The notes: generated from the sequence alone by a model not told the origin. A stretch of DNA of 64,000 bases from Deltaproteobacteria bacterium (GCA_016713425.1 JADJPE010000005.1:3086143-3150142); one strand, 5' to 3'. Positions 24,956 to 64,000 are shown, numbered from the stretch's first letter. A program made the numbers and translations.

Positions 24956-25684
24956 ATCCGCGGCGAGACCGATCCTGAGAAGCTGGTCGACCGCAGGCGT
25001 GGTCGTCTCAAGGCCACGCGAGCTGAGCTCGTCGAAGCCCTGCGCGGTCGCGTCACTCGGAATCATCGCTTTCTTCTCGAGCTTCACTTGAACCAGATCG
25101 ACGCCCTCGACAAGTCGATCGAGAGCGTGGAGAAGGAGGTCGGCGAGCTGCTGGAGCCCTTTCGAGCTGCCGCCGAGCTCCTGAAGACGATCCCAGGCGT
25201 CAGCGATACCGTCGCCGATGTGATCATCGCGGAGATCGGGGTCGACATGTTGCGCTTTCCAACTGCAGGGCATCTCGTTTCCTGGGCAGGTCTCTGCCCT
25301 GGCAATGATGAGAGCGCCGGCAAACGTCGCTCCACTCGCGTTCGAAAAGGATCTCCGTGGCTCAAGACAACGTTGGTCCAAGCGGCATGGGCGGGATCCC
25401 GTACGCGCGGAACGTACCTGCGTACACAGTTCCTGCGCCTCAAGACTCGCCGCGGTCCTAAGAAGGCCATCATGGCGGTCGCCGCATCGATGCTGACCGC
25501 CATCTATTACATGCTCCGAGACTCCGTCCCCTACCGCGATCTTGGCCCCGACTACTTCGACCGCATGGACACGACCAAGGTGACCACCCGCCTGGTTCGC
25601 AGGCTCGAGAGCCTCGGGTTCCATGTCGAGCTCAAGGAGGCATCCTAAGCGAAAACGATCGTCATCAGCCGTGGTTTCGTTCTA
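24956..25684 (+). mobile_element. IS110-family element, 5'-truncated copy 3 (3' ~730 bp only)
   Basis: Homology begins at ...IRGETDPEKL (transposase residue ~180); right junction identical to copies 1 and 2. Confidence 0.7.
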
Positions 25685-35647: not shown

Positions 35648-35665
35648 TGATTGCCCTATCGGCCT
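35648..35665 (+). repeat. Isolated terminal 18 bp of the IS91-like 3' end, abutting the putative intron 5' end
   Basis: ctgattgccctatcggcc; the same juxtaposition occurs inverted at 54023..54040. Confidence 0.5.
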
Positions 35666-38349: not shown

Positions 38350-39966
38350 AGCCTCTGAACCCACAGTTCTCGAGCTCCTCCGTTCGCTTCTCGACTCCGG
38401 TGCGAAGGAGGATGTGGTCGATTTGTTCGCCCAGCTCGTGGCGCGGAACGAAGCTCTGGAGCTTGCGCTCGCGAAGAAGCTCCGAGCGTTCAAGACGACG
38501 GAGAAGGTCTCCCCAACCAGCTGAAGCTTCTGCTCGAGACCGTATCCAGCAACGCCCTCTCCGAGACGCCGGCCAACGCGGAGGGCGAGTCCGAGGCAGA
38601 GGATACGACGGCAGGCGAGACGGCGGCGGAACAGCTCGGCAAGATGGTCGAGAACGAGCGCAATCGGCGGGCGACCGAGCAGACGCAGCCGCCACCGGCA
38701 CGGCCTCGCCGGACGCCATTTCCTCCGAACCTACCGCGCGAAGACAACCCCATCTCAGTGCCTGACGCTGAACGGCCATGTCCGAAGTGCGGGCTCGAGC
38801 GGCGATGTGCAGGCCACGACGTGAGCGAGGTCCTCGAGCTCGTGCCCGCGCGTGTGATCGTGCGCCGGGACCTCCGGGAGAAGCTCGCCTGTGACGCCTG
38901 CGATGCGCCGAACTTCAGCCGCGCGCCGGTCGGTGATCGCGTCGTCCAGGGGGGCCAGTACGGACCCCGTCTCGTCGCTCAACTGCTCGTCGACAAGTAC
39001 CGAGACGGCCTCCCTCTCCACCGCCAGCGGGAACGATATCGACGGATGAGTGTCGACCTCTCGGTCTCGACGCTGGCGGACCAGGTTGCGTACGGCGCCG
39101 AGCTCCTGCAGCCGCTCTGGCGCGCAGCCCAGATCGCGGCACTCAAAGCGAATGTCCTGCATCTCGACGGCACGTCCCTCGCGTTCTTCACTGGCGAGGG
39201 CAAGGATGCGAAGCGTCACAAGAAGCTGGGCGCGCTGTGGGGCTTCGTCGTTGACCAGGACGTTGCGCTCTATCTGTTCGCGCCCTCCGGGCACGCGACA
39301 TTCGCGGACGGGCATACCATCGGACCCGCCGACTTCCTACGCTTGCGCTCCGGCTACACGGTCGCCGATGCCGCAACTGTCTTCGATCAGGCGTTCGCGC
39401 GCGAAGACATCATCGAGTGCGGGTGCAACATGCACGCGCGTCGCTACTTCGTGAAGGCCCTCGACGGCGGAGAGGCACGCGCCGCGATCGCGATCGATGC
39501 CTACCAGGCGCTGTACGGAATCGAGAAGGAAGCGAGAGACCTCGAGCCAAGAGAACGCCTTCGACTTCGGCGTGAACGCAGCGCGCCGATCTTCAACAAG
39601 CTTCTCGAGTGGGTCGAGTCCATCAAAGACGACGAGCCTCCTTCACTGCGCTTCGGTCGAGCGCTCAACTATTTCTCGAACCAGCAAGTGCCGCTGAGTC
39701 AGTTCCTCACGGATGGCCGCGTCCCCATCGATAACGGCGTTGTTGAGCGTCTGCACGTGCGCGCCGCGCTGACGCGGAAAAACTTCCTCTTCGCCGGATC
39801 AGAGCGCGGCGCTCAGAGCGCCGCCATCATCTTCTCGCTCTTGGGCTCGTGCGCGCTCTGCGGCATCGACCCCGTCGAGTATCTCGCCACCGTCATGCCC
39901 ATTCTCGCGCGAGGCGTCATCGAGAAGGACGTCATCGACCTCCTGCCCCGCAATCTTCCACTCTGA
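38350..39966 (+). pseudogene. IS66 TnpC transposase with a frameshift near 38515
   Basis: N-terminal coiled-coil frame stops at ...KVSPTS*; the next frame continues through CPKCG, LPLHRQ, DDE core and RKNFLFAGSERGA (ORF 38644..39966). Confidence 0.7.
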
Positions 39967-40050
39967 CTGAGCGTCGCGAACTCCCGGGCCGCCAGGCTCA
40001 GGGGACGAATCTTGTCCGGCCTCGAGGAAGAATCCGGCGGTCGCCCGGAC

Positions 40051-40156
40051 ACTCACTCCCCGTCGTCTTTTGATTCTTCGAAGTCACGGACCGGAATCAT
40101 CGTCCGTCTCCCGATCGGTGGTCCCGACCTTTCTCGGCGCCCGACCGGACGCTCAC
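40051..40156 (-). repeat. Inverted ~100-bp copy of the IS66 left end abutting the right end of the full element
   Basis: Reverse complement of 40051..40156 matches the left end at 37462..37561, including the first ~30 bp of tnpA. Confidence 0.6.
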
Positions 40157-40326
40157 CTGCGCGCAGGCTACGGAACTCAACGGCAGTCCCGTCTTGTGGC
40201 GTTCCAAACCGGCCAGACTGCGCGCAACATGTGACTCGTCGCACACCTGCGTCGGTTCTCCGACTGCTCCGGGCATGGTATCGACGACGCATAGTGAGTC
40301 GAAGCCGATTGATTGCCCTATCGGCC
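40157..40326 (+). mobile_element. IS91-like 3'-terminal 170-bp fragment, copy G
   Basis: Begins ctgcgcgcaggctacggaactcaacgg, ends ...gattgattgccctatcggcc at 40326. Confidence 0.6.
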
Positions 40327-40825
40327 GCCGATGAAGAACGAGAACGCGCTTCAAGGAAGCTTCTTCGTCGAAGACCTCACCGATCGAGTCGAAGCGGCTG
40401 TTCTCGATGAGTTCGATCGACTCGCAGAGCGCGGCGGCGTCCTCGGCGCGATGGAAACGCAATACCAGCGAGGCAAGATCCAAGACGAGTCGCTCACGTA
40501 CGAGAAGATGAAACATGATGGAAGCCTTCCAATCGTGGGCGTAAACACCTTCCAGAATGACGCCACGGACTACGAAACAGGGGCGAACAACGCCGAGCTC
40601 CGGCGCGCGTCGAAAGACGAGAAGAACGGGTGCATCGAGGCGCTTCGCGCCTTCCAAACCGCCCACCGGGAGGAGGTTCAAGGCGCGCTTCTTCGGCTAA
40701 AGGCCACCGCAGAACGCGGTGAGAACGTCTTTCGGGAACTCATGGAGACAGCCCAAGTGGCAAGCCTCGGCCAGATGACCAACGCGCTCTATGAGGTGGG
40801 CGGCCGATACCGCCGGAACGCTTGA
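40327..40825 (+). pseudogene. 5'-truncated fragment of a methylmalonyl-CoA-mutase-family gene
   Basis: ...GVLGAMETQYQRGKIQDESLTYEKMKHDGSLPIVGVNTFQ... recalled as the mutase catalytic-domain C-terminal region; begins at the IS terminus. Confidence 0.4.
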
Positions 40826-44624: not shown

Positions 44625-45351
44625 GGATGGATGTTACCCATTTCTGAATCGGTCCCACCCGAAAAGTCGGAGCACGAAAGCCTCGTTCCGTTCACCGGGA
44701 GGTGCTTGAGGTCCCGGTCCTCGAACTTCAGGCGGACTGCCCAGCGAGCTCATAGGTGGACGTAGGTCGATCGGGCGAGATGCGCCCTACCGGACGCCTC
44801 CCATGCACACGCAGCCGATGATGTCGGCGCTGTCCCTTCGCACCGAAGCCGTCTGGCAGCGGGCGATCGATGAAGCGCGCGGGGCGTACCGGTGCCGAGC
44901 ACTTCCGCAACCCGGACGATGACCTACGCGGCGGCATCGAGCTCGTTGGGGACGAAACCACGCTTGCGAGTCGCAGCCAACGTGGGCATGAGCTTGTCCG
45001 TCAGCGCAGCGAGGAAGTCCGAAATTCGACGAAGACACGAACAAACGAGCGCCATTGCCGAGGCCTTCCGTGACGGCATGAAACGAGCTCATGGCGCGTT
45101 GTGTGCGCGCAAGCGGTTTCCGAATACAAACCACGAAAACCGGAGTCGGGAATCCTGCATTGCCTCGTCTCGACCCACTTTGACGAGTTTGTCGAAAGTT
45201 TTGAGGACCCAGATTCCCCCGAGTCCGGGTTGCCGACATTTGTCCGCAAAGAGTTTGAACGATTCCTCGACTGCGGGATCTTGGAACGCGGGTTCGTCCT
45301 TCTTTTCTGCGACCGATGCCAGCGTGAGCATGCTGTGGCCTTTTCGTGCAA

Positions 45352-46844
45352 GTTCGCCATGTCCGGACGGACACCCCGTGGCATGAAACTGGTAGGATGC
45401 GCCGCGTTGGTGGTGGCACAGAGATCGGCGTTTCCTTGGTGCTTCAGCCCGTGTGCAAGTTGGATCCGGAGCTCTACGAGCACCCCGTACTGCGCCATGG
45501 AGTCCGCCTATGCGGCTTCGGGAGCGCGCGTTCTAGATTTCGATCACGAGAGCTCCACGCCATCACCGACAGGAGTGTGTGGTGGAAGTTCTTCATGCCC
45601 GTTGCGCGGGGCTCGACGTTCACAAGGACACGGTCGTGGCCTGCATTCGAATCGCATCCAAAGGAACAGCGACGCAAGATGTGCGAACTTTCCAGACGAC
45701 GACTTCGCAGTTGTTGGCGTTGTCTGACTGGCTGAGCGAACAAGAGGTGACACATGTCGCGATGGAGGCGACGGGCGTCTACTGGAAGCCGGTTTGGCAC
45801 ATCCTCGAGGAGTCGTTCGAGCTCGTCCTCGCGAACGCCGCCCATATCAAGAACGTTCCCGGGCGCAAGACCGACGTGAACGACGCGATGTGGATCTCGG
45901 ATTTGCTCGCACATGGTCTGATCCGAGGCAGCTTCGTTCCGGAGGCATCCATCCATGAGCTACGCGCGCTCACGCGAACGCGCAAGCAGCTCGTCCGTGA
46001 GAAAGCCCAGCACATGCAGCGGATTCAGAAGACGCTCGAGGATGCGAACATCAAGCTCGCATCGGTGATCACGGACATTCTCGGAATGACGGGACGCGGG
46101 ATCCTCGAAGCTCTCATCCGCGGCGAGACCGATCCTGAGAAGCTGGTCGACCGCAGGCGTGGTCGTCTCAAGGCCACGCGAGCTGAGCTCGTCGAAGCCC
46201 TGCGCGGTCGCGTCACTCGGAATCATCGCTTTCTTCTCGAGCTTCACTTGAACCAGATCGACGCCCTCGACAAGTCGATCGAGAGCGTGGAGAAGGAGGT
46301 CGGCGAGCTGCTGGAGCCCTTTCGAGCTGCCGCCGAGCTCCTGAAGACGATCCCAGGCGTCAGCGATACCGTCGCCGATGTGATCATCGCGGAGATCGGG
46401 GTCGACATGTTGCGCTTTCCAACTGCAGGGCATCTCGTTTCCTGGGCAGGTCTCTGCCCTGGCAATGATGAGAGCGCCGGCAAACGTCGCTCCACTCGCG
46501 TTCGAAAAGGATCTCCGTGGCTCAAGACAACGTTGGTCCAAGCGGCATGGGCGGGATCCCGTACGCGCGGAACGTACCTGCGTACACAGTTCCTGCGCCT
46601 CAAGACTCGCCGCGGTCCTAAGAAGGCCATCATGGCGGTCGCCGCATCGATGCTGACCGCCATCTATTACATGCTCCGAGACTCCGTCCCCTACCGCGAT
46701 CTTGGCCCCGACTACTTCGACCGCATGGACACGACCAAGGTGACCACCCGCCTGGTTCGCAGGCTCGAGAGCCTCGGGTTCCATGTCGAGCTCAAGGAGG
46801 CATCCTAAGCGAAAACGATCGTCATCAGCCGTGGTTTCGTTCTA
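45352..46844 (+). mobile_element. IS110-family insertion sequence, copy 2, at the identical site within IS91-like tnpA
   Basis: Same junctions as copy 1 (offset 27341 bp); apparently identical. Confidence 0.8.
45579..46808 (+). CDS. IS110-family transposase
   Basis: 409-aa ORF identical in translation to 18238..19467. Confidence 0.9.
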   Translation: MVEVLHARCAGLDVHKDTVVACIRIASKGTATQDVRTFQTTTSQLLALSDWLSEQEVTHVAMEATGVYWKPVWHILEESFELVLANAAHIKNVPGRKTDVNDAMWISDLLAHGLIRGSFVPEASIHELRALTRTRKQLVREKAQHMQRIQKTLEDANIKLASVITDILGMTGRGILEALIRGETDPEKLVDRRRGRLKATRAELVEALRGRVTRNHRFLLELHLNQIDALDKSIESVEKEVGELLEPFRAAAELLKTIPGVSDTVADVIIAEIGVDMLRFPTAGHLVSWAGLCPGNDESAGKRRSTRVRKGSPWLKTTLVQAAWAGSRTRGTYLRTQFLRLKTRRGPKKAIMAVAASMLTAIYYMLRDSVPYRDLGPDYFDRMDTTKVTTRLVRRLESLGFHVELKEAS

Positions 46845-46845
46845 G

Positions 46846-48273
46846 GGGCGGGCGATTTGTCCGAGCTGCGGTGCACGACGGATGCAGGAGACGGCGGCCC
46901 ATCTCGTCGATGACGTGCTGCCCGATGTCGCGCTGCGGCAATACGTGCTGAGCCCGCCGTTCGAACTGCGCGGTCTTCTCGCGTGCAAACGAGAAGTCTT
47001 GGCGAAGATGGTGAACTTTTTCGTTCGGGCGATCTTTGAGCAACTGACCGACTGGGCTCGATGTCAGGGTCTCACAGGACCGAAATGCGGCGCAGTCACC
47101 TTCATTCAGCGATTCACGAAGACCCTGAACATCTCACCCCATCTTCATGTGCTCGTTCTCGACGGAGTCTTTGCGAACGAAGAAGAGGGTCCCCGTTTCG
47201 TCGAATGCCCAGCCCCAACGAATCGAGACCTTCTTTCGTTGCCCCAAAGGGTCTTCAAGAAGATGGAGAAATTTCTCGCGAAGAGCGGATATCTCCGAAG
47301 CGAGTCGGACGCTCTTGAGGAAGCATCGCTGACACCCGTGGAGCGCTGGTATGTGCGGGGCCTCGCGGAGCCATCGATGCTGTCGCCAAGTCGCATCGTG
47401 GACGTCAAGTCCACGGCGATCGAGTGTGGTGGATTCAGTGTTCATGCTCAGGTTCGTGTTGCCCAAGGCGATCGACGAGGACGAGAAAGGCTCTGCCTAT
47501 ATGCGGCCCGTCCGCCTTTCGCCGAAGGTCAACTTCGCATGACCGATGATGGCCGAGTTCGGCTGACGCTTCGTCGTCCAGCGAAGAACGGCCAGGGTGC
47601 GATCGTTCTATCACCGGTTCAGTTTCTGAGGCGCCTCGCGTGGCTCGTTCCTCCCCCGGCGCAGCATCAGGTTCGCTATGCGGGAGTTCTGGCCTCGGCC
47701 TCGAAAGTGCGGCGCGCGATTGTTCCAAGGCCCGCACCAGTTCTTCAGCTCGCCTTCCCGATCGAGAACATGAGGCCTCGGGTTCAGAAACATCGCATGT
47801 CGTGGGCCAAACTGTTGGCCCGCGTCTATTCGATTGATGGAGAGCGCTGCTTGAGCTGTGGCGGCCCACTTAGGCCGATCGGTGCGGTGACTGAATCGAG
47901 TCACGTCGCGCAGACTCTCGGTCGGATGCGACGGCAGCGATGCGCTCGAGATCCCCTCAGCTCGCCCTCGATCTCTGATCGACTCTACAAACCAACCCAA
48001 GGTCCCACGCTCCGGGCCTCGGCGCTTCTTGTCCGCGCGGTCGCACTGCTCGTCCGCTGGGGGAGAGGTACGTCTGAACGCTGCGCGCAGGCTACGGAAC
48101 TCAACGGCAGTCCCGTCTTGTGGCGTTCCAAACCGGCCAGACTGCGCGCAACATGTGACTCGTCGCACACCTGCGTCGGTTCTCCGACTGCTCCGGGCAT
48201 GGTATCGACGACGCATAGTGAGTCGAAGCCGATTGATTGCCCTATCGGCCTATCGGCCTCGGGGCCCTCATGA
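46846..48273 (+). pseudogene. IS91-family tnpA distal portion (copy H), longest uninterrupted frame
   Basis: ORF 46882..48273 (463 aa) covers the HUH and Y2 regions and reads through the element terminus; 5' part (45101..45351) is separated by IS110. Confidence 0.6.
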
Positions 48274-50385: not shown

Positions 50386-51235
50386 TCACCGGTGCCGACC
50401 GCTTCCGCAACCCGGACGAGGACCTACGCGGCGGCATCGACCTCGTTGGGGACGAAACCACGCTTGCGAGTCGCAGCCAACGTGGGCATGAGCTTGTCCG
50501 TCAGCGCAGCGAGGAAGTCCGAAATTCGAAGATCAACTTCGCATGACCGATGATGGCCGAGTTCGGCTGACGCTTCGTCGTCCAGCGAAGAACGGCCAGG
50601 GTGCGGTCGTTCTATCACCGGTTCAGTTTCTGAGACGCCTCGCGTGGCTCGTTCCTCCCCCGGCGCAGCATCAAGTTCGCTACGCGGGCGTTCTGGCCTC
50701 GGCCTCGAAAGTGCGGCGCGCGATTGTCCCAAGGCCCGCACCGGTTCTTCAGCTCGCCTTCCCGATCGAGAACATGAGGCCTCGGGTTCAGAAGCGTCGC
50801 ATGTCGTGGGCCAAACTGTTGGCCCGCGTCTATTCGATTGATGGAGAGCGCTGCTTGAGCTGTGGCGGCCCACTTAGGCCGATCGGTGCGGTGACTGAAT
50901 CGAGTCACGTCGCGCAGACTCTCGGTCGGATGCGACGCCAGCGATGCGCTCGAGATCCCCCTCAGCTCGCCCTCGATCTCTGATCGACTCCACAAACCAA
51001 CCCAAGGTCCCAAGCTCCGGGGCTCGGCGCTTCTTGTCCGCGCGGTCGCACGGCTCGTCTGCCGGGGGAGAGGTACGTCTGAACGCTGCCCGCAGGCTAC
51101 AGAACTCAACGGTAGTCCCGTCTTGTGCCGTTCCAAGCCGGCCAGACTGCGCGCAATATGTGACGCGCCGCACACCTGCGTCGGTTCTCCGACTGCTCCG
51201 GGCATGGTCGAAGCCGATTGATTGCCCTATCGGCC
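50386..51235 (+). mobile_element. IS91-like element, copy I, with a large internal deletion
   Basis: 5' part from tcaccggtg joined at ~50529 to the tnpA distal region (...LRMTDDGRV); 20-bp deletion near the terminus shared with copy K. Confidence 0.6.
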
Positions 51236-51251
51236 TCGTCTGCTGAGGGCT

Positions 51252-51443
51252 GAGGGAGAGGTACGTCTGAACGCTGCGCGCAGGCTGCGGAACTCAACGG
51301 CAGTCCCGTCTTGTGCCGTTCCAAACCGGTCAGACTGCGCGCAAGACGTGACTCGTCGCACACCTGCGTCGGTTCTCCGACTGCTCCGGGCATGGTATCG
51401 ACGACGCATGGTGAGTCGAAGCCGATTGATTGCCCTATCGGCC
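51252..51443 (+). mobile_element. IS91-like 3'-terminal fragment, copy J
   Basis: Terminus at 51443 followed by the same tatcggcc duplication as copy H. Confidence 0.55.
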
Positions 51444-51529
51444 TATCGGCCTTCACCCCCCACGTACTCGGCTTGGCTGAACCTCGTGGAGCGCTTCTTC
51501 GCCCTGCTCTCCGCATGGACTCATTGCAC

Positions 51530-53637: not shown

Positions 53638-54022
53638 TGACGCGGCGTTCAGCAACGGGTTTGTCGTCTAGCGAAGCCGCTCCACCAGGTCCCCGTGGCC
53701 AGCCTCTGTCATGGTCGGAGGACAGTGGCCCTGAAGGTGATCGAGGTCTGTTGGGGCCTGAAGACGGACAGACGACGCGTATGCTTGAAGAACCGCTCAA
53801 GCAAGCGCCCTGCTGACTCCTTCTCTGTCTTCGATTCGATGGCGTCTCGGACTTCTTCATTTAGATGCTCCTCTCCTGGCGGACGACAGGTATCGTGCCG
53901 TCGTTCTGGCTCCACACACTACGATCGCCATGATCCGTCCCGCTAGTGTGGCGACGTGTCGGCACGTCTCCCGTCGCAAGAACCGATCGACAGGACGATC
54001 ACACACTCGTGCTCAGCGACAA

Positions 54023-54101
54023 GGCCGATAGGGCAATCAGTGCGCCAGGCGAAGCCTGGGAGAAGGGGATGCAGATGACAGGCTGAAACTTCTCGTCGGA
54101 C
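54023..54101 (+). mobile_element. Inverted IS91-like terminal 17 bp followed by ~62 bp matching the putative group II intron 5' end
   Basis: ggccgatagggcaatca + gtgcgccaggcgaagcctggg... matches the minus strand of 35586..35665, then diverges. Confidence 0.4.
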
Positions 54102-54383
54102 CACCTTGGCGCAACTGGCGAATACAGCCACCGCTTCAAGGGCGAAGACGGTGCCTCTTTCGGGCTGCAAGCAGGCGTGGTCGTTCCAGTGATACTTCTC
54201 TTTCGCGATCTCGGGTTGGGCCGCATCCATTGATGGACATTATTGTGCAACCGTTGGGAAGAGTGTGCTCATGGACAGCATCGATTCAACCTGGTTTTCG
54301 AAGCATTTGCGGGGACGAGAAGAGCTTGCCGACCTGACTGTCGTCGAGATCACCCTCGACCGTGTACGGTCCTTGTTGGCCGG

Positions 54384-56255
54384 CATGCACACGCAGCCGA
54401 TGATGTCGGCGCTGTCCCTTCGCACCGAAGCCGTCTGGCAGCGGGCGATCGATGAAGCGCGCGGGGCGTACCGGTGCCGAGCACTTCCGCAACCCGGACG
54501 ATGACCTACGCGGCGGCATCGAGCTCGTTGGGGACGAAACCACGCTTGCGAGTCGCAGCCAACGTGGGCATGAGCTTGTCCGTCAGCGCAGCGAGGAAGT
54601 CCGAAATTCGACGAAGACACGAACAAACGAGCGCCATTGCCGAGGCCTTCCGTGACGGCATGAAACGAGCTCATGGCGCGTTGTGTGCGCGCAAGCGGTT
54701 TCGGAATACAAACCACGAAAACCGGAGTCGGGAATCCTGCATCGCCTCGTCTCGACCCACTTTGACGAGTTTGTCGAAAGCTTTGAGGACCCCGATTGCC
54801 CTGAGTCCGGGTTGCCGACATTCGTCCGTAAAGAATTCGAAGGATTCCTCGACTGCGGGATCTTGGAACGCGGTTTCGTCCTTCTCTTCTGCGACCGATG
54901 CCAGCGTGAGCATGCTCTGGCCTTTTCGTGCAAGGGGCGGGCGATTTGTCCGAGCTGCGGTGCACGACGGATGCAGGAGACGGCGGCCCATCTCGTCGAT
55001 GGCGTGCTGCCCGATGTCGCGCTGCGGCAATACGTGCTGAGCCCGCCGTTCGAACTGCGCGGTCTTCTCGCGTGCAAACGACAGGTCTTGGCGAAGATGG
55101 TGAGCTTCTTCGTTCGGGCGATCTTTGAGCAACTGACCGGCTGGGCTCGATGCCAGGATCTCCCAGAACCGAAATGCGGCGCCGTCACCTTCATTCAGCG
55201 ATTCACGAAGACCCTGAACATCTCACCCCATCTTCACGTGCTCGTTCTCGACGGAGTCTTCGCGAACGAAGAAGAGGGTCCCCGATTCGTCGAATGCCCA
55301 GCCCCAACGAATCGAGACCTTCTCTCGTTGGCTCAAAGCGTTTTCAAGAAGATGGAGAAATTTCTCGCGAAGAGCGGATATCTCCGAAGCGAGTCGGACG
55401 CTCTTGAGGAAGCATCGCTGACACCATTGGAGCGCTGGTATGTGCGCGGCCTCGCGGAGCCATCGATGCTCTCGCCAAGTCGCATCGTGGACGTCAAGTC
55501 CACGGCAAGCAAGGCTCTGCCTATATGCGGCCCGTCCGCCCTTCGCCGAAGATCAACTTCGCATGACTGATGATGGCCGAGTTCTGCTGACGCTTCGTCG
55601 TCCAGCGAAGAACCGCCAGGGTGCGATCGTTCTATCACCGGTTCAGTTTCTGAGACGCCTCGCGTGGCTCGTTCCTCCCCCGGCGCAGCATCAGGTTCGC
55701 TACGCGGGCGTTCTGGCCTCGGCCTCGAAAGTGCGGCGCACGATTGTGCCAAGGCCCGCACCGGCTCTTCAGCTCCCCTTCCCGATCGAGAACATGAGGC
55801 CCCGGGTTCAGAAACGTCGCATGTCGTGGGCCAAACTGTTTGCCCGCGTCTATTCGATTGATGGAGAGCGCTGCTTGTCGTGTGGCGGCCCGCTTAGGGC
55901 GATCGGTGCGGTGACTGAATCGAGTCACGTCGCAGAGACTCTCGGTCGGATGCGACGGCCGCGATGCGCTCGAGATCCCCCTCAGCTCACCCTCGATCTC
56001 TGATCGACTCCACAAACCAACCGAAGGGCCCAAGCTCCGGGGCTCGGCGCTTCTTGTCCGCGCGGTCGCACGGCTCGTCCGCTGGGGGAGAGGTACGTCT
56101 GAACGCTGCCCGCAGGCTACGGAACTCAACGGCAGTCACGTCTTGTGCCGTTCCAAACCGGCCAGGACTGCGCGCAACATGCGACGCGTCGCACACCTGC
56201 GTCGGTTCTCCGACTGCTCCGGGCATGGTCGAAGCCGATTGATTGCCCTATCGGC
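54384..56255 (+). mobile_element. IS91-like element, copy K; divergent subfamily with internal deletions
   Basis: Same left boundary as copy H; ~65-bp internal deletion near 55510 and the 20-bp terminal-region deletion; ORFs 54683..55570 and 55440..56003. Confidence 0.6.
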
Positions 56256-56499
56256 TGGAGCGCTCCCCAAAAACGGCCCACCCGTGCTCTCGAGAAGCAG
56301 TCCACCCGACGCTGTGGAGGGTGTGCGACGAGATGCTGGCTGAGGTCGCCGCCGTCTGATAGTCGAAATGAGCGGGGCAGAAGTTGGGGTCGGAGGTAGA
56401 AGCTCCGAGCCCCTGTGTCTCCACAAGGCCGTGGGCGACGTATCGTCGTCGCATAGAGGGGCCTCGTAGTCCAGCTTCCCCTTTGCCCCGCCCAAGGCC

Positions 56500-56859
56500 G
56501 TGTCGATCAGGATCTGGGCAATCAAGTGTTTGGATTGTGGGCGTAGGTTCTTGCTGTGTCGTGGATGCTTCCACGGTCAGCGATACTGCTCAGGTGAATG
56601 CCGCTCGCGATCTCGTCGCCGGCAGTGCCGCGAAGCGCAGGCTCGGTATCTCGCGAAGCGCAAGGGCCGGGTTCGAAGAGCCGCGGCGTCAGCCGCGTAC
56701 CGCGGGCGCGTCCAAGATCTCGGCGAATCTCGAGGGGAGAAGTTGATTCGTCATAGATCAGGGTGTCGGAGCCTGCCGCGTTTCGAGGCACAAGTTCTCC
56801 CGTCTACGGCCTGCTGCGAGCGGTGCGGTGGTTATGGCCCCGTACGTGAGTGGCACTGA
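56500..56859 (+). CDS. Cys-rich zinc-ribbon-like protein
   Basis: GTG start; CLDCG...CRGC...CSGEC...CCERCGG; ends 19 nt before the ParB-like gene. Confidence 0.35.
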   Translation: MSIRIWAIKCLDCGRRFLLCRGCFHGQRYCSGECRSRSRRRQCREAQARYLAKRKGRVRRAAASAAYRGRVQDLGESRGEKLIRHRSGCRSLPRFEAQVLPSTACCERCGGYGPVREWH

Positions 56860-56877
56860 CGCAAGAGCGGGTGTGCG

Positions 56878-57825
56878 ATGGAGTTGGAGATCGGTCAGCT
56901 TGAGCTTCGCTACGAGAAGCTACGGCGGAGGAACGCGCGCAAGGAACGGCAACTGGTCGGCTCACTCGCGGAGAAGGGGCAGCTTCTGCCTGTCGTGGTG
57001 GTGCGTGGCGACGACGCCAGGCATGTACTCGTTGATGGCTACAAACGCGTTCGAGCGCTGAAGTCGTTGCGGCATGACTTGGTGCGCGCAACCCTATGGG
57101 AGCTGGGCGAGCTTGAGGCTGTGTTGCTCGAGCGGCTAATGCGGACGAGCGAATCGGACGGTGCTCTTGAGCAAGGCTGGCTCCTGGAGGACCTCAACGA
57201 GCGCTTTGGTCTCTCCCTCGCCGAACTGTCGCGGTGCTTCGACAAGAGCCAGAGCTGGGTGAGCCGCCGTTTGGCTCTGGTTCGAGCGTTGCCTCGGGAG
57301 GTTCAAGACCGGGTGCAAAGTGGGTCGCTCGGAGCGCATGCGGCGATGAAATACCTCGTGCCGATGGCGCGCGCCAAACGTTCGGATTGCTTGCGCCTCG
57401 TCAAGAGCCTCGCGGATGGCCGACCGAGCACGCGGGAGGTCGGTGCACTCTATGCAGCCTGGGTTTCGGGCAACGCGAAGACGCGCGAGCTCGTGGTGAC
57501 TCAGCCCTTCGTGGTTCTTCGATTGCGAGAGCAGGCAGCTCCCCTCGTCGATTCGGCTTCCGAGAAGAGGCTCTTCAGAAAGCTTGTTGATGACTTCGGT
57601 ATCCTCATCGGAACAAGCCGACGGGCTCGAACAAGACTCAAAGAGGGTGCGCTGTCTGGGCTGGTTCCGCCTGAGGCGTTGGACCTTCAGCATGCCACAC
57701 AGCAAGCGAAGTGGGAGTGCGAGTCGCTGTTTCGGTCAGCGCTCTCGCTTCTGATGCACCGCACCTCGCAGTCAAGCGTCGAAGGCGTCGAGAGCGCCAC
57801 TTTGGAGGCCATTGATGCTGGATGA
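56878..57825 (+). CDS. ParB/Srx N-terminal-domain protein
   Basis: LPVVVVRGDDARHVLVDGYKRVRALKSL matches the ParB-like nuclease-domain core; 3' end overlaps istA by 14 nt. Confidence 0.55.
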   Translation: MELEIGQLELRYEKLRRRNARKERQLVGSLAEKGQLLPVVVVRGDDARHVLVDGYKRVRALKSLRHDLVRATLWELGELEAVLLERLMRTSESDGALEQGWLLEDLNERFGLSLAELSRCFDKSQSWVSRRLALVRALPREVQDRVQSGSLGAHAAMKYLVPMARAKRSDCLRLVKSLADGRPSTREVGALYAAWVSGNAKTRELVVTQPFVVLRLREQAAPLVDSASEKRLFRKLVDDFGILIGTSRRARTRLKEGALSGLVPPEALDLQHATQQAKWECESLFRSALSLLMHRTSQSSVEGVESATLEAIDAG

Positions 57826-59245
57826 GCATCAACGAATCGCCATCCTCGAGCTCGCGAAGAAGGGGTTCGGTAGTCGCCGTATCGCCCGCGCGCTCAATCT
57901 CTCGCGAAGCGCTGTGCGATCCGTGGTGGAGAGCGGAACGGCTCCGCCGCCCAGGATTGTTCGGCCAGAGAAGGCGGCCGAGTATCATGACGCCATCGTT
58001 GAGCTGCACGTACGCTGCAAGGGCAACTTGGTTAGGGTCCATGAAGAGCTGGAGAAGAAGGGCGCCAAGCTCTCCTACCAGGCACTCACGGCGTTCTGCC
58101 GCCGGCACGAGATCGGCCACACCCCAAAGCGCCCATCCGGACGCTATGAGTTTGCGCCCGGCGAAGAGATGCAACATGACACCTCGCCACACCAAGCCCA
58201 AATAGGCGGGCGATTGCGCAAGGTGCAGATCGCCTCGCTCGTGATGTGCTACTCGCGGATGCTCTTCGTTCAGATCTACCCCTGCTTCACCCGCTTCGAG
58301 TGCAAGGTCTTCCTCACCGACGCGCTTGAGTACTTCGGCGGAGCGGCGGGGCGATGTATGATCGACAACACCAACGTCGTTCGACTCAAGGGCACGGGCA
58401 AAGAGATGGTGCCTGTGCCCGAAATGTCCGCGTTCGGTGAGCGATTCGGGTTCGTCTTCGTGGCGCACGAGGTTGGCGATGCCAATCGCTCGGCACGGGT
58501 CGAGAACCCGTTCAAATGGGTGCAGAGGAATTTCCTCGTCGGGCGGGAGTTCTCCGATTGGGACGACGTCAACATGCAGGCGCGGTCCTGGTGCGAGGAG
58601 AAGAACGCCGCGCGAAGCCCGAAACTTCACGCTACGCGCCGAGAGCTGTTTGCCGCCGAACGGCCGCGTCTCAAGGCCCTGCCGATCTTCATACCCGAGG
58701 TCTATGTCCTGCATCAGCGGTTCGTCGATGCCGAGGGCTACGTCAGCGTTCGGCGTAACCGCTACTCGGTTCCCTACAAGCTCATCGGAAGGCAAATGGA
58801 GGTGCGCGAGAGTAAGCAACGCATCGACATCTTCGAGGGTCCGCGCCAGGTGGCAACGCATAAGCGTGTCGTCGATCCGCTCGACGTGCGCGTAACCAAG
58901 CCCGAACATCGTCCGCTCCGAGGCGAGGGTCGACGCAAAACCGAACCACCGGCAGAGCAAGCGGAGCTGTTGGCGACAGCTCCCGAACTGGCGAACTACG
59001 TGGCTGCGCTCAAGCAACGCGCTTACGGGCGTGGCGTGAAGGTGCTTCGATGCCTGCTACGCATGGTTCGTGAGTATCCCCGCGAGGCCTTGATGCCTGC
59101 CCTGCAAACCGCCGAAGCCTACGGTCTATACGACCTCGACCGCGTCGAGCGGATGATTCTGCGCCAGATAGCACGCGATTACTTCATTCTGTCCGACCCG
59201 GACGACGAGGACTACCCACCCGTCGAGGAGAACCAAGATGAATGA
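57812..59245 (+). CDS. istA: IS21-family transposase IstA
   Basis: N-terminal HTH, DDE core, typical length (477 aa). Confidence 0.85.
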   Translation: MMLDEHQRIAILELAKKGFGSRRIARALNLSRSAVRSVVESGTAPPPRIVRPEKAAEYHDAIVELHVRCKGNLVRVHEELEKKGAKLSYQALTAFCRRHEIGHTPKRPSGRYEFAPGEEMQHDTSPHQAQIGGRLRKVQIASLVMCYSRMLFVQIYPCFTRFECKVFLTDALEYFGGAAGRCMIDNTNVVRLKGTGKEMVPVPEMSAFGERFGFVFVAHEVGDANRSARVENPFKWVQRNFLVGREFSDWDDVNMQARSWCEEKNAARSPKLHATRRELFAAERPRLKALPIFIPEVYVLHQRFVDAEGYVSVRRNRYSVPYKLIGRQMEVRESKQRIDIFEGPRQVATHKRVVDPLDVRVTKPEHRPLRGEGRRKTEPPAEQAELLATAPELANYVAALKQRAYGRGVKVLRCLLRMVREYPREALMPALQTAEAYGLYDLDRVERMILRQIARDYFILSDPDDEDYPPVEENQDE

Positions 59246-59963
59246 CGATCTCTCTCAGCTTTTTAGCTGCTTGAAGCTGAACAAGATTGCCGAGATCTTC
59301 GACGATGAGCTCGCGAAAGCCGACAAGCAACATACTCCATTCAGTAAACTCTTCGCGCGCCTCTTGCGTGCCGAATGGCACGCACGGCAGGAAAGCGCGC
59401 TTGCGTGGAGAATCAAGAGGGCTTCTCTGCCGGAGCCGTGGACGCTCGAGAGCTTCCCATGGAAGAAGCAACCCAGCGTACCGCAACGCAAGCTCCGCGA
59501 ACTCGCCGAGCTCGAATTCATCGGACGCGCAGAGAACATCGTGTTCATCGGACCAACTGCTGTTGGCAAAAGCGGTCTCGCGATGGGCTTGCTGCTCAAG
59601 GCTCTGCAGAACGGCTATCGCGGGGTCTTCATGCCGGCCCAGGACCTCTTCGATGAAATGTACTCGTCGCTCGCGGACCGTTCTACCCCGCGGCTGCTCA
59701 ACCGCCTCGCTCGCCTCGACGTCTTGGTGATCGACGAAATGGGCTATCTCAACCTGAGGCCCGAGCAGAGCAACATCTTCTTCAAGTTGATGCACCTTCG
59801 GTATCGGCGGCGACCGACGATCATCACGACGAATCTCGACTACCCCGAGTGGGCCTCCTTCCTCGGAAATCCCAAGATGGTAGAGGCCTTGCTCAGCCGT
59901 GTGCGACACCAGTGTCACACGATCAAGATCGACGGTCCGCCCCTGCGTGAGCCTCAGAGCTGA
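59238..59963 (+). CDS. istB: IS21-family helper ATPase IstB
   Basis: Walker A GPTAVGKSGLA and Walker B VLVIDEMGYL; 8-nt overlap with istA. Confidence 0.85.
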   Translation: MNDDLSQLFSCLKLNKIAEIFDDELAKADKQHTPFSKLFARLLRAEWHARQESALAWRIKRASLPEPWTLESFPWKKQPSVPQRKLRELAELEFIGRAENIVFIGPTAVGKSGLAMGLLLKALQNGYRGVFMPAQDLFDEMYSSLADRSTPRLLNRLARLDVLVIDEMGYLNLRPEQSNIFFKLMHLRYRRRPTIITTNLDYPEWASFLGNPKMVEALLSRVRHQCHTIKIDGPPLREPQS

Positions 59964-60223
59964 GAATCTAACCTTACCCTCTCCGTGCGCTGTCAGTCCC
60001 TCGACGCTCTTGCCTCCTCCCGCACGTTCACAACTCCGTTCTCGATGTGGACTGGTTCTGCAGAGCAGAAGTGGACTGCTTTTCATGAGCGCCACAGCTA
60101 TCGGCCCTCTGAGATTGGCTCTGTTTACCTCGCTGAGCTCCGGCGTTCAGTTTCGGTTCTGGTTTTCATTCAGAATCTAGTTTTCGATTGTCAATCTAGC
60201 CCTGATCTCTAGAAGAGGGGCCC

Positions 60224-63200
60224 ATGTCTTCCGCGCGACGACGGGCCAGATCGCTCCGCGATCTGCTTAGACCACGCGTGACATTCCTTGCCTCGTGCCT
60301 GATCCTGAGCACGAGCTCGGTCGGCTGCGGCGACCCGGACGACGCAACGGAAGACACGGCGTCGCAGGCCGCCACCACAAGCCGTGAAACGGCAACGCAA
60401 GAAGACGATGCCGAGGCCAGCGAAGAGAACGCACGCGCAGGAAGGCCGCCATTTCGTCCGCGTCCTTCGTTCCCGGCCGCGCTTGGCGATGCTTGCGCCT
60501 TCCCGCCTGTCTCACCCCCGCCGCAAGAGAACGTCGGGGCAACGGTCGGTGAAGCGAGCGTTTCGGGTGGAACGGCGTCCTACCGTATTCCGATCGTGGC
60601 CCCCCCCGGGCGCAGAAGCGTCGCACCACAGATCGCGCTGTCGTACTCGAGTGGGACGGCCCTACGAGGTGGCGGTGAGGCTGGCGTAGGCTGGTCGGTG
60701 GGTGGACTTTCCGTCATCACCCGGTGTCCACAAACGGTCGCGACCGACGGCCGGCTTCACGCGGTCGACTACAGCCTCGAGGATCGGCTGTGTCTCGATG
60801 GACAGAGATTGATGCTTGTCAAAGGGGTCTACGGGCGATCGGGGTCCGAGTATCGAACGGAGATCGAAAGCTTCAATCGCATCATCCTGCACGGAAATAT
60901 CTCGAAGGTCGCCGTAGCCGAGAAGCTCGAGCCCTCGTTCATCGAGGTCCAATCCAAAGATGGACGAACGTCGTACTACGGCGGTGCTTGGGTAGGTGAT
61001 CGCGGCGCGCTTGAGTCTCTGTCGCCGCCCTTCACGCCGAGCGCGATGGGCGCGGCCATGCTCGAAGCCTGGAACGCCCCCCATGCGTGGTGGATCCGCT
61101 TGTCGCACGATCCTCAAGGCAACAGCATTGCCTACGACTACGTCAACCGAGACGGCGAGTTTCTGCCCGAGAAGATCGAGTACACCGGCATTCTGTCGCC
61201 CAGCGATCCGAAGTCTGAGCGGCGAGGCAACCGAAGAATTCGTTTCGAGTTCGAGCCTCGCCCCGACCCCGAGGTGCGGATGCGCGTCGTGCTCTCCGAT
61301 TTCACCATTATTCCCGACTCGCTCCCGCCCCCGAGTCTGTTTCCTTCGCTTCCGTTGGCTGAGACGCGCCGTCACCGGCTGAAGACGATCGTGAGCGAGG
61401 TCGCCCGGGATGTCGTGCGTCGCTACGAACTTGCGTATACCGAGAGCCGCGCAACCAAGCGCTCTCTTCTGTCGTCCGTCACGGAATGCGCAGGCACGCC
61501 GTGCACCGACGTCAATCGCTTGCCGCCGACTCGATTCACATACCAAGACGCGCCCGCCGGCTACGCGGAGGTCAGTCTGGCGGAAGGGGAAGACGTTTGG
61601 GTCTCTCTTTTGAGCGACTTCGACGGCGACGGAACGCGCGACACCGAACGCATGACCCGCGACTGCCACGTCCAAAGTCGCTGGACGGAGGACTACGTAC
61701 GGCTCTCCGGTGGTGGATCGATGAACGTGTTGAACGAGCCATGGAAGCAGTGGCTCGATCGCGCATGGAACGTCAGAAGCCGGTCTGACTTCGATCTGGA
61801 TGGCGCTTCCGATATCCTCGGGGTCGCCGATGGTCGCTTTGCCTTCGTGAGCCGAGGGCAAGTCAAAACCACGTCGCTCGAGCTTGATGATACGGACTTC
61901 TTGGTCGACGCCGCCGACTTCGACGGCAACGGTCAAACCGATTTGCTCATTGACCGTGGCTCCTCGGGCGTAGGCCGTCATCTTTCCGCGATTCTCCAAT
62001 GCACCGCGGCCGGTGCCGCGACGTTGAGCTTCTGCGACGAAGTCCCGGTCCCGCTGGGGTCTAATCCCGCTTCGCGCGTTTCGGTGCGCGTCATCGGGGA
62101 CGTCGATGGAAACGGACGTCCCGATTTGTTCGTCGACTGGGACGGTGTCGGAAGAAAGCCAAGCCACGAGACGCCGCCTGTGATCATCCGCCCGGCCATT
62201 GTCTTCGCGCTCCAAGACCTGACCAGCCCTGAACGGATAAGCCTTCGCTTCGAAGCCGCCCCGCTCTTCGAGCGAGGCGGTCCCGTGGCCTCGTTCAGAG
62301 AAGACGAGAATGGAGGTCTGGCCGATCTCAACGGCGACGGCCTGGTCGACATCTTCTCGTTCTCCAAGGTGGCGAACGACACGTACGCGCCGACGATCTG
62401 GATCAACAGCGGCGGCCTCTTTCGTCAGGCTCAGGTCACAGGCCTAACGCAGCTCGGCATCGAGAATCACCACGTAGGTTTGTTGTCGGCTTTCGACCAA
62501 GACGCCGATGGGCGCGCTGAGATCCTTATCCCGGGCGAACTCCGACTGCCCTGGTGCTATGAGGAAGCCTCGGGTGCGGAGCCCAAGGAGTACTGCGCGG
62601 GCTTCAGCGGAGCCCACAACATCACATTAAACGCCGTCGCCAGGGCGTCTGACCGCAGTATCTATCGTTGGGACGCGCTCGACTTCGTAGACGATGGCCA
62701 AGGCGGCTTCATCCTTGAGCGGCGTCCGACGCCCATCGAAGCACCACTCCAAGGGACCTCACCGGAAGACTTCTTTGGCGACGGTTTGACCGATCTCCGC
62801 ATCGAGCTTCGTCGAACCTTCCACATCGTAGCCCCGATTGATGGTGGCGGCGGTGGCGGAGGAGGTGGCAGTGGTGGAGGAGGTGGAAGCCATGATCGTG
62901 GCGTTTGCACCCCTTCGTATCCGGTCGGGTATTGGAGAGGCAATCCTGGCTATGGCGTGAAGGTTCTGAAGAACCGAGGCGTCGTGCCCGATCTCTTGAT
63001 TCAGAGCGATGATGGTCTCAGCGTCACGTCGACATGGAGCTATCGTTCGTTGTCGAGCCAAGGCGTTTCCTCGTGCTCAAACAAGCTGTACGAAAACCAT
63101 GGGCGTGCGGCGGTAGACCCCCATCATTTCCTGTTCACCTCGTCGATGAACGTCGTAGCGCGCTTTGAGTCGAGCAACGGACTCGGGGATCGAAACGGTC

Positions 63201-64000
63201 GTTGTTATCTGTACGAAGACGCCATGGCCAACAACGAAGGCCGTGGCTTTCTTGGGTTCAAGAAGATCACGGAGTTCGAAGACGTCAAACCCGGAGTCCC
63301 AGGTTCAAAGCCCTCTGACGAAGCCGGCTCGTTGCCGAATAGCGTTCGAACGACGACGACGTATGCGCAACAGTTCCCATTGATCGGCGTGCCGATCGAC
63401 GTTTCGACCTACCTCGCCGACGATGACGCAAGCAGGAAGCCCTTTAAGCGTGTGACGCACCGATGGTCGAGCCGATGTGAAGCCGACGCCGATGCTGCGT
63501 CTTCGGGTCAGGTTTGTGTGAACCACCTGGACGAAGCGATCGAGGAAGTGCGTGATGTGGCGTTGTCGCGAGATTGGATCAGCACGAAGGCGACGACGTA
63601 TACGTACCTCGGAGACGACGAGGCGTATGGCAATGTCTCCATCGAGCGAACCGAATTCTTGGACGGAGTTCAGGGTCAGATTGTCGAAAAGCGCAACACG
63701 TACGACTACTCTTCGGCTAATCAATGGTGGATCGATCAGCGGGTTCGCCAAGAGGTCGAGTTTGAGCCGGTCGCGTACCGCGAGCCGCACGTGATTGCGG
63801 GTCTCCGTGAAAACAACCAGAAGATCCTCACCACCCAGACGAATTACTATCGGGACGACGGAAGCCCGACCTCTAGGCAACCGCGCTCGGAGGTTGTCCA
63901 AGACGGCAACGCCGCCGAGCGCCACCAAGTTGATTTCGATCGATATGACCGCTTTGGAAACCTTCTCACGCAGACCATGGAGCGCACAGGTCGACAACCG
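60224..64000 (+). CDS. Large secreted toxin-like protein, N-terminal >=1258 aa: SpvB/TcB-type N-terminal domain, FG-GAP/VCBS repeats, start of RHS/YD repeats; 3' end outside window
   Basis: ATG 60224 with AGAGGGG upstream; signal/lipobox-like N-terminus; SYRIPIVAPPGRRSVAPQIALSYSSG...GVGWSVGGLSVITRC; repeated DxDGDG motifs; ...YDRFGNLL at the end. Frame checked at codon 246 (60959). Not in the ORF track because it has no stop in the window. Confidence 0.7.
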   Translation, partial: MSSARRRARSLRDLLRPRVTFLASCLILSTSSVGCGDPDDATEDTASQAATTSRETATQEDDAEASEENARAGRPPFRPRPSFPAALGDACAFPPVSPPPQENVGATVGEASVSGGTASYRIPIVAPPGRRSVAPQIALSYSSGTALRGGGEAGVGWSVGGLSVITRCPQTVATDGRLHAVDYSLEDRLCLDGQRLMLVKGVYGRSGSEYRTEIESFNRIILHGNISKVAVAEKLEPSFIEVQSKDGRTSYYGGAWVGDRGALESLSPPFTPSAMGAAMLEAWNAPHAWWIRLSHDPQGNSIAYDYVNRDGEFLPEKIEYTGILSPSDPKSERRGNRRIRFEFEPRPDPEVRMRVVLSDFTIIPDSLPPPSLFPSLPLAETRRHRLKTIVSEVARDVVRRYELAYTESRATKRSLLSSVTECAGTPCTDVNRLPPTRFTYQDAPAGYAEVSLAEGEDVWVSLLSDFDGDGTRDTERMTRDCHVQSRWTEDYVRLSGGGSMNVLNEPWKQWLDRAWNVRSRSDFDLDGASDILGVADGRFAFVSRGQVKTTSLELDDTDFLVDAADFDGNGQTDLLIDRGSSGVGRHLSAILQCTAAGAATLSFCDEVPVPLGSNPASRVSVRVIGDVDGNGRPDLFVDWDGVGRKPSHETPPVIIRPAIVFALQDLTSPERISLRFEAAPLFERGGPVASFREDENGGLADLNGDGLVDIFSFSKVANDTYAPTIWINSGGLFRQAQVTGLTQLGIENHHVGLLSAFDQDADGRAEILIPGELRLPWCYEEASGAEPKEYCAGFSGAHNITLNAVARASDRSIYRWDALDFVDDGQGGFILERRPTPIEAPLQGTSPEDFFGDGLTDLRIELRRTFHIVAPIDGGGGGGGGGSGGGGGSHDRGVCTPSYPVGYWRGNPGYGVKVLKNRGVVPDLLIQSDDGLSVTSTWSYRSLSSQGVSSCSNKLYENHGRAAVDPHHFLFTSSMNVVARFESSNGLGDRNGRCYLYEDAMANNEGRGFLGFKKITEFEDVKPGVPGSKPSDEAGSLPNSVRTTTTYAQQFPLIGVPIDVSTYLADDDASRKPFKRVTHRWSSRCEADADAASSGQVCVNHLDEAIEEVRDVALSRDWISTKATTYTYLGDDEAYGNVSIERTEFLDGVQGQIVEKRNTYDYSSANQWWIDQRVRQEVEFEPVAYREPHVIAGLRENNQKILTTQTNYYRDDGSPTSRQPRSEVVQDGNAAERHQVDFDRYDRFGNLLTQTMERTGRQP

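Follow-up and report, generated by a model that had tools for sequence, protein, structure and literature searches.

The structural basis of the BC cocoons of Tc toxins is provided by the entries 4O9X, 4IGL and 6H6E. The comparative basis for these cocoons and for RHS polymorphic toxins is found in two studies (PMC3482391, PMC7861908). The TcdB/TcaC class of polymorphic toxins was defined by Zhang, de Souza, Anantharaman, Iyer and Aravind in 2012 and is on record from delta-proteobacteria and many other phyla (PMC3482391). Natural tcB-tcC fusion genes were noted by Song et al. (PMC7861908). Rhs toxins of myxobacteria that bear signal peptides and are independent of type VI secretion (T6SS) have also been documented; among them, Rhs4 and Rhs5 act in T6SS-independent kin discrimination and are thought to be located at the surface and to act by contact (PMC10433427). 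The SitA lipoprotein toxins are delivered by outer membrane exchange in myxobacteria, and it is the anchor that makes SitA transferable (PMC5562445, PMC8546572). Lipid anchoring of polymorphic toxins is already known elsewhere, from MafA, the Amoebophilus APD domains and SitA. Here we describe a gene located at the end of a stretch of 64,000 nucleotides (nt) from Deltaproteobacteria bacterium (GCA_016713425.1, JADJPE010000005.1:3086143-3150142), the whole of which is referred to as the window. The product of this gene is very probably a single-chain RHS polymorphic toxin of the "BC-type" that is exported by Sec and anchored by lipid, and it falls in the TcdB/TcaC class. The gene is ordinary in that it is a further member of a very common, long-described class.

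The translation of the plus strand from the ATG at 60224 contains 1,259 codons without a stop, and the frame continues past the end of the window. This bears out the original prediction, made from the DNA alone, of an uninterrupted frame of at least 1258 codons. When the bases were shuffled 2,000 times, the longest open stretch in the same frame had a mean of 136 codons and a maximum of 326. An in-frame TGA at 60203-60205 makes ATG 60224 the earliest possible start. A ribosome-binding site of the GAGG type, which had been predicted as well, precedes this codon at about 60212-60220. The G+C content at codon positions 1, 2 and 3 is 0.63, 0.50 and 0.70, respectively, resembling that of other genes in the window. 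No Pfam match was obtained for the minus-strand open reading frames (ORFs) 60662-62215, 61978-62406 and 63305-63997, and in 60662-62215 and 63305-63997 the G+C content peaks at codon position 1 and not 3. These ORFs look non-coding, and the original prediction was right to regard them as antisense. It had also correctly explained why the toxin frame is missing from the mechanical ORF list: the lister drops ORFs that run off the source.

The domain order of the encoded protein was derived from Pfam scores, judged against the gathering cut-off of each family. The cut-off is exceeded by SpvB (PF03534; 36.3 bits against 22, residues 115-167), FG-GAP_3 (PF13517; 50.7 bits against 26.9) and TcdB_toxin_midN (PF12256; 29.2 bits against 24.8). 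The profile search for SpvB and FG-GAP/VCBS families suggested in the original prediction is hereby positive for both. The predicted SpvB/TcB signature is found as PQIALSYSSG at residues 135-144 (nt 60626-60655) and GVGWSVGGLSVITRC at residues 154-168 (nt 60683-60727). The limits of the SpvB/TcB N-terminal domain, which is the closed end of the shell, were drawn from family alignments; in P0241, a full-length relative described below, the Pfam SpvB model spans the equivalent of residues 115-314. The expected FG-GAP/VCBS-type repeats are represented by six calcium-loop-like DxDxDG motifs at residues 465, 522, 565, 626, 701 and 758 and by a degenerate one, DFFGDG, at residue 849. The propeller is all-beta in the structural model, with a predicted local distance difference test score (pLDDT) of mostly 75-90, and it was aligned to the TcdB2 propeller. 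The poly-Gly/Ser run is present as predicted, at limits close to those first given (62836-62892 instead of the actual ones in Table 1). The residues around it (865-894) have a pLDDT below 50, the loop is two residues shorter in P0241, and an unrelated linker takes its place in the relative P0001. The TcdB_toxin_midN region contains the conserved motif GRGFLGF at residues 1006-1012. The remaining shell segment of the window protein aligns to residues 870-1088 of P0001 and 988-1230 of P0241, just N-terminal to their Pfam RHS repeats. The segment YDRFGNLL, which had been taken for the first RHS repeat, is present at residues 1241-1248 (nt 63944-63967). Pfam does not call it as such, as RHS_repeat has no match inside the window part of the protein; its position aligns exactly with the onset of the RHS repeats in P0001 and in P0241. 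No PAAR, prePAAR or VgrG-linked N-terminal Pfam domain is found in the window protein, and no NCBIfam model matches it.

Table 1. Features of the toxin gene and of its surroundings in the window. Residue numbers (aa) refer to the window protein.
Feature	Position (nt)	Strand	Basis or remark
Partial coding sequence	60224..64000	+	First 1,259 codons, ~53%, of a putative TcB-TcC-fused RHS polymorphic toxin
Predicted type II (lipoprotein) signal peptide, aa 1-35	60224..60328	+	PROSITE-type lipobox pattern
Acidic, Pro-rich low-complexity tether, aa 36-106	60329..60541	+	Composition; pLDDT <50 where modelled
SpvB/TcB N-terminal domain, aa ~107-445	60542..61558	+	Pfam SpvB, Foldseek, family alignments
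FG-GAP/integrin-like beta-propeller, aa ~446-865	61559..62818	+	Pfam, motifs, all-beta model
Poly-Gly/Ser loop G9SG5S, aa 874-889	62843..62890	+	Mixed GGN codons
TcdB_toxin_midN region, aa 901-1016	62924..63271	+	Pfam PF12256
Beta-sheet shell continued, aa 1017-1259	63272..64000	+	Long beta-hairpins, pLDDT ~90
Leader of 125 nt, IS21 end to start codon	60099..60223	+	Copy of target duplication, in-frame TGA, GAGG-type ribosome-binding site
IS21-like element	56254..60098	+	IstB_IS21, Mu-transpos_C_2, HTH_ParB (Pfam); inverted repeats; target duplication
ParB-HTH ORF, 315 aa	56878-57825		Within IS21-like element
IstA	57815-59245		Within IS21-like element
IstB	59238-59963		Within IS21-like element; Pfam IstB_IS21, E 3e-56
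IS91-like direct copies	~7503-8993, 19422-20912, 25603-27091, 28578-30067, 34082-34894, 46763-48253, 50445-51446, 54852-56229		
IS91-like end fragment	40157-40329		
IS91-like inverted copy	14425-15117		
IS110-family copies	18238-19467, ~24420-25650, 45579-46808		DEDD_Tnp_IS110 + Transposase_20
Two IS66-family transposase genes and rve-type integrase	32553-34010, 38644-39966, 2327-3673(-)		

The relationship to Tc toxins was apparent in distant sequence matches and in the fold. A single-sequence phmmer search against PDB gave spurious matches to the poly-Gly linker only. The search of PDB with a profile built from 27 family members matched TcdB2-TccC3 of Photorhabdus (E 1e-62), YenB (4e-36) and TcdB1 (4e-34), the matches to the Tc chains falling in separate segments that correspond to the cap, the propeller and the shell. 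The same profile also matched T6SS Rhs effectors via the shell region, and in the FG-GAP propeller region it matched integrins and fungal lectins. The AlphaFold model of residues 76-1259, which was built on 48 homologues, is confident (mean pLDDT 80; predicted template modelling score, pTM, 0.83), the parts of low confidence being the extreme N-terminus, the poly-Gly loop, several other loops and a few short stretches. When this model was compared with PDB by Foldseek, the first 13 places were taken by TcB chains, including 6suf_F, 6l7i_F, 4igl_A and 4o9x, with E values from 2e-36 to 1e-30 (2e-36 to 6e-33 for 6suf_F, 6l7i_F and 4igl_A), TMq of 0.54-0.59 and about 1,300 alignment columns, at a sequence identity of 12-14%. 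The structure of an SpvB N-terminal domain, 6p0x, was also matched (E 1.6e-7). The shells of T6SS Rhs proteins rank far lower (E 1e-15, template modelling (TM) score 0.12-0.13). There is thus good support for a TcB-like cocoon whose N-terminal half is the window protein. A T6SS Rhs effector was considered as an alternative identity and rejected in view of the missing PAAR domain, the presence of a signal peptide and the poor fold match (TM 0.12).

The original prediction of a signal or lipobox-like N-terminus agrees with a match to the PROSITE-type lipobox pattern at Cys35. The N-terminus reads MSSARRRARSLRDLLRPRVTFLASCLILSTSSVG-C. An n-region rich in Arg is followed in it by the 16-residue hydrophobic stretch VTFLASCLILSTSSVG and by the lipobox CLILSTSSVG-C. 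From this sequence, Cys35 is predicted to be the lipidated residue. A twin-arginine translocation (Tat) signal was set aside: RRR is present, but the Tat consensus does not follow it and the hydrophobic region begins 10 residues later. The tether behind the lipobox has a pLDDT below 50 over model residues 1-18, which are residues 76-93 of the protein, and it ends at Cys91, a residue conserved in the clade. Lipoboxes are also located at the true N-termini of L001/P0001 (...LVAVAAC), L010/P0002 (...GYVAGC), L005 and L045. A lipobox-like N-terminus was found in 7 of the 15 best library matches, in 4 of the next 35 and in 4 of the remaining 97. In most of the family, the SpvB domain is immediately preceded by an ordinary Sec signal, and L001 and L010 carry an Fn3-like domain at the position of the tether. 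Two further cysteines, Cys168 and Cys190, are conserved in the family and correspond to Val and Thr in TcdB2 in the profile alignment. Judging from the alignment, their conservation is consistent with disulfides in an exported protein.

The second half of the gene lies outside the window, and its likely content was derived from full-length relatives. A word-indexed protein search yielded 260 relatives, the best of which are 36-39% identical and come from metagenome-assembled genomes (MAGs) of Myxococcota or "Deltaproteobacteria". The full-length relatives are single-gene TcB-TcC fusions of 2,000-2,900 residues, and an RHS core and a variable C-terminal domain are found in all of them. Ntox23, DUF4329/Tox-JAB-2 and PIN are recognised toxin folds among their C-termini. 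Pfam RHS repeats are present in both P0001 (2,195 residues) and P0002 (2,108 residues); the RHS core of each has the motif ...YDPALGRFLSVDP...NNPL..DPSG, and their C-termini are non-homologous. At E ≤ 1e-3, the exhaustive HMMER search returned 10,168 cluster representatives, 739 of which also passed E ≤ 1e-30. Its top match is P0241 (MBK8013952.1), a protein of 2,360 residues from a Deltaproteobacteria bacterium MAG, which is 94% identical to the window protein over residues 28-1259 (1,232 residues) without a frameshift. P0241 is most likely the product of a second copy, a paralogue, of the toxin gene in the same genome. The SbcD-like protein of the window is 100% identical to P0121, and window positions 9711-14510 recur with 100% identity in a short-read contig of SRR11674035. 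No identical locus was found in the GTDB representative genomes, and a scan of JGI metagenomes with the single window protein gave no match. Exact look-ups (IstB, the ParB-like ORF, IstA, SbcD/P0121 and P0241) returned nothing, or short SRR11674035 contigs that break at insertion sequence (IS) copies.

Beyond the part equivalent to the window, P0241 continues for about 1,130 residues, which carry RHS repeats, an RHS core and, at the C-terminal end, a region of about 370 residues. By analogy of sequence, the complete window protein would have about 2,390 residues and be a TcB-TcC fusion from a single gene, not TcB alone. If the window gene is collinear with P0241, its stop codon is to be expected near position 67,390. 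The terminal domain of P0241 scores 22.0 bits against Pfam PIN (E 2.6e-4) when a C-terminal query of 126 residues is used and 18.7 bits (E 0.0027) with a query of 295 residues, both below the cut-off of 23.6. Pfam PIN is matched by 13 of 17 homologues of this domain, with a best E of 2e-7. A profile of the domain weakly matches the structures of VapC and FitB, and the acidic signature LDTN...D..AAgA...TnD is conserved in terminal domains of the P0241 type. The single-sequence fold of the domain has a pLDDT of 57, and its Foldseek matches are non-significant, with PIN proteins at the top. We regard the C-terminal toxin of P0241 as PIN-like, a call that rests on the homologues, as the single-sequence fold was of low confidence.

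Several additional observations were made on the relatives. The annotated start of P0241 (MSTSSVGCG) falls within the signal peptide, so that either the start has been mis-called or the signal peptide is damaged. In P0241 (residues ~1990-2235), P0001 and P0002, the RHS core and the divergent terminal domain are linked by a small module rich in beta structure and a hydrophobic stretch rich in Gly and Ala, which might serve to move the cargo across a membrane. The family also has a split form, found in many of its members, in which a gene of 950-1,000 codons, encoding SpvB, the propeller and mid-N, is followed directly by an RHS gene of about 1,190 codons with a signal peptide of its own. Such an arrangement is present in L013 (5719-8722 and 8763-12290), where the second gene ends in DUF4329/Tox-JAB-2, and also in L016, L046, L052 and L077. 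The split point near residue 1,000 differs from the canonical border between TcB and TcC.

Genes that might act together with the toxin were looked for in the window and around related genes. The original prediction had proposed a search for TcA-like partners nearby, and none is encoded in the 60 kb upstream within the window. No ORF of the window other than the toxin frame exceeds 1,145 codons, and the others above 700 codons encode an SbcC-like ATPase, a PD40/peptidase protein and a beta-helix/DUF4214 protein. Around P0001 and P0002 no TcA gene is present, nor was a TcA-sized or TcA-like ORF found in 355 kb flanking 56 related genes. Of the other large frames in this flanking DNA, eight were sampled with Pfam; besides RHS genes, they comprised a second SpvB/FG-GAP gene, a restriction enzyme gene and unknowns. 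The P0002 gene is followed, 4 nt later, by a gene for a DUF7684 protein of 140 residues, and L001 is followed by an ORF of 105 codons. These two genes are candidate immunity genes.

Taking these data together, we infer the following scheme for encapsulation, autoproteolysis, delivery route and target, and for everything past position 64,000. The type II signal peptide would take the protein across the inner membrane. Cys35 would be lipidated, and the flexible linker of about 70 residues would tether the protein, probably to the outer membrane. Together with the RHS repeats, the SpvB/TcB N-terminal domain and the FG-GAP propeller are expected to form a closed beta-sheet shell. The aspartyl autoprotease of the RHS core may then release the C-terminal toxin of about 300-370 residues, which would be retained inside the shell. 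Contact with a neighbouring cell would open the propeller end, and the toxin would pass into the target. A small downstream immunity gene is presumed to protect the producer and its kin. A more specific and rather improbable extension of this scheme concerns the sub-clade with lipoboxes, consisting of the window gene, its apparent paralogue, P0001, P0002, L005 and L045. Its members might be TcA-independent BC cocoons that are anchored by lipid on the outer membrane and deliver their cargo when they touch neighbouring bacteria. The transfer might proceed via outer-membrane exchange, via vesicles or through a target receptor that opens the propeller gate, and the Gly/Ala-rich segment of P0241, P0001 and P0002 might carry the toxin across the inner membrane of the target.

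The identification of the gene as that of a single-chain, lipid-anchored BC-type toxin has to be weighed against several considerations. The RHS repeats, the RHS core, the toxin and the immunity gene all fall outside the window, the lipobox is known only as a pattern match, and P0241 might represent the same locus in another assembly rather than a paralogue. Expression is uncertain because the IS21-like element ends 125 nt upstream and the leader contains no sigma-70-like promoter. A TcA gene could also lie elsewhere in the 7.3-Mb genome. The last point leads to a different reading of the gene, namely as the BC subunit of a three-part Tc (ABC) toxin, in which a TcA pentamer encoded elsewhere would bind to the propeller and deliver the toxin into eukaryotic cells by injection. 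Both the fold and the domain order match TcB, in Tc toxins TcA docks on the propeller, which also serves as the gate (structures 4O9X, 6H6E), and orphan tcB/tcC loci far from tcA are on record (PMC7861908, PMC11067744). We nevertheless consider this origin very unlikely, as no TcA-like ORF is present upstream in the window or beside the 56 relatives. Furthermore, canonical TcB lacks a Sec signal and Tc complexes are freed by lysis of the producer (PMC10847048), whereas Sec signals occur in the family of the window protein, which itself bears a lipoprotein signal. The full-length relatives are single-gene fusions, with no separate TcC gene; TcdB2 lacks Cys168 and Cys190, which are conserved in the family; and the identity to TcB chains is only 12-14%. 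The PIN-like toxin of the paralogue, the Ntox23 and Tox-JAB-2/DUF4329 domains of the relatives, which are catalogued in polymorphic toxin systems, and the candidate immunity genes downstream likewise speak for a polymorphic toxin.

It is also conceivable, though unlikely, that the window copy is silenced or decaying, with its promoter lost to IS21 or its frame interrupted past 64,000, and that the intact P0241 does the job. The window is saturated with IS elements, and the IS21-like element lies directly in front of the gene with a clean 5-bp duplication and has left no promoter-like site in the leader. The existence of a full-length copy with 94% identity fits this explanation too, as does the fact that the protein searches gave no 100% match to the window gene, while SbcD was matched at 100%. 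The missing match may be a search artefact, though, and the 1,259 codons are intact and show no frameshift relative to P0241. The signal peptide, the lipobox and the ribosome-binding site are intact as well, and the G+C content by codon position is typical of a coding frame. The promoter scan covered the sigma-70 consensus only, and read-through from the IS element is possible. An extremely unlikely reading is that of a surface adhesin or a VCBS/FG-GAP repeat protein that is not toxic and encapsulates no toxin. It finds some backing in the NCBI name of P0241, "VCBS repeat-containing protein", and in the occurrence of FG-GAP propellers in adhesins and lectins, to which the integrins and fungal lectins matched in PDB belong. 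However, the SpvB cap, TcdB_midN and the shell are specific to BC-type cocoons, and all full-length relatives have an RHS core and variable C-termini, some of which are recognised toxin folds. The single-chain, lipid-anchored BC-type toxin is the reading on which the comparison below is based.

The toxin gene is separated from earlier upstream DNA by the IS21-like element. This element has imperfect terminal inverted repeats of 52 nt (56254-56305 and 60047-60098) and a clean direct target duplication of 5 bp, TATCG (56249-56253 and 60099-60103). It also holds two small minus-strand ORFs. A short-read contig from the same sample (L003) begins exactly at 56253/56254. Before the insertion, no more than about 150 nt separated the start of the toxin gene from the end of an IS91-like copy. 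A scan of 59900-60300, limited to the sigma-70 consensus, gave no sigma-70-like promoter. The IS load of the window comprises about nine IS91-like copies, three of IS110, two of IS66, the IS21-like element and an rve integrase. The IS91-family element (Zn_Tnp_IS91/Y2_Tnp) is about 1.5 kb long, and its roughly nine copies and fragments are 94-100% identical, with mosaic blocks of identity. Eight copies have one orientation, and the longest transposase frame (46882-48273) encodes 463 residues. It is striking to find one rolling-circle IS so densely represented within 64 kb. Mobilisation of the toxin gene as the cargo of its neighbouring IS91-like element was set aside, as the gene lies 3′ of the transposase gene and the rolling-circle direction is not established. 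Each IS110 copy is located directly upstream of an IS91-like copy, and 17865-20912 and 45206-48253 hold two copies of a composite unit of about 3 kb. The IS66 region is flanked by repeats of 282-292 nt (30277-30849 and 39483-40056). An ORF of 349 codons on the minus strand (31237-32286) matches Pfam HopBA1 (type III effector HopBA1, ChaN/Tiki superfamily) with an E of 1.5e-12, and it could be another effector-like gene in this IS-rich region. A perfect inverted repeat of 81 nt (35585-35665 and 54022-54102), the arms of which are 18 kb apart, is not obviously part of the listed IS copies.

For annotation, these results mean that the end of the window is to be labelled as a BC-type RHS polymorphic toxin gene, of which it holds the 5′ 53%, and that the antisense ORFs are to be dropped. 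The gene adds one member to a class with about 10,000 public cluster representatives. The points of modest interest are the closest clade, which is predicted to be lipoprotein-anchored, and the apparent presence of two 94%-identical copies in the genome; the IS21-like insertion 125 nt upstream, in DNA crowded with IS elements, is mildly unusual as well. A tractable lipid-anchored example could help to explain how TcA-less, Sec-exported BC cocoons open and deliver their cargo.

Among the described systems, the T6SS Rhs effectors (Tse15, 8UY4; RhsA, 7Q97; Tre23, 7PQ5) have an RHS shell and autoproteolysis at the RHS core, as is predicted for the toxin described here. The window protein differs from them in having a signal peptide instead of a PAAR, prePAAR or VgrG-binding N-terminus and in its fold (TM 0.12-0.13). 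The SitA toxins (PMC5562445, PMC8546572) are likewise lipobox-anchored polymorphic toxins from related bacteria, but they are small, have no RHS shell, need TraA/TraB and show no sequence relationship, the lipobox being the only shared feature. Myxococcus xanthus Rhs4 and Rhs5 (PMC10433427) resemble the window protein in their large size, their signal peptides, their delta-proteobacterial or Myxococcota-type host and their association with mobile DNA. They are about 4,000 residues long, and the likeness is one of description only. The cocoons of Photorhabdus TcdB2-TccC3 and TcdB1-TccC2 and of Yersinia YenB-YenC (4O9X, 6H6E, 6SUF, 6L7I, 4IGL) display the same order of cap, propeller and shell, and their RHS-core autoprotease motif is also present in the paralogue and the homologues of the window protein. 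They are encoded by two genes, whereas the relatives of the window gene are single genes, and the sequence identity is 12-14%. TcdB2 has neither the calcium-loop-type FG-GAP motifs nor the Cys168 and Cys190 of the window protein. Tc cocoons are assembled in the cytoplasm and released by lysis, while Sec/lipoprotein export is predicted here and no TcA is encoded nearby. The closest correspondence is with the TcdB/TcaC class, as the window protein combines a signal peptide, SpvB, an integrin-like beta-propeller and the start of an RHS shell. In its full-length relatives, RHS repeats and a polymorphic toxin at the C-terminus come next, and candidate immunity genes lie downstream. Compared with this class, the lipobox signal is a minority feature that is concentrated in the closest relatives, and the Fn3-like domain of the nearest homologues is replaced by a disordered acidic tether in the window protein. 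The lipoprotein anchor of the closest sub-clade is a small variation on a known class.

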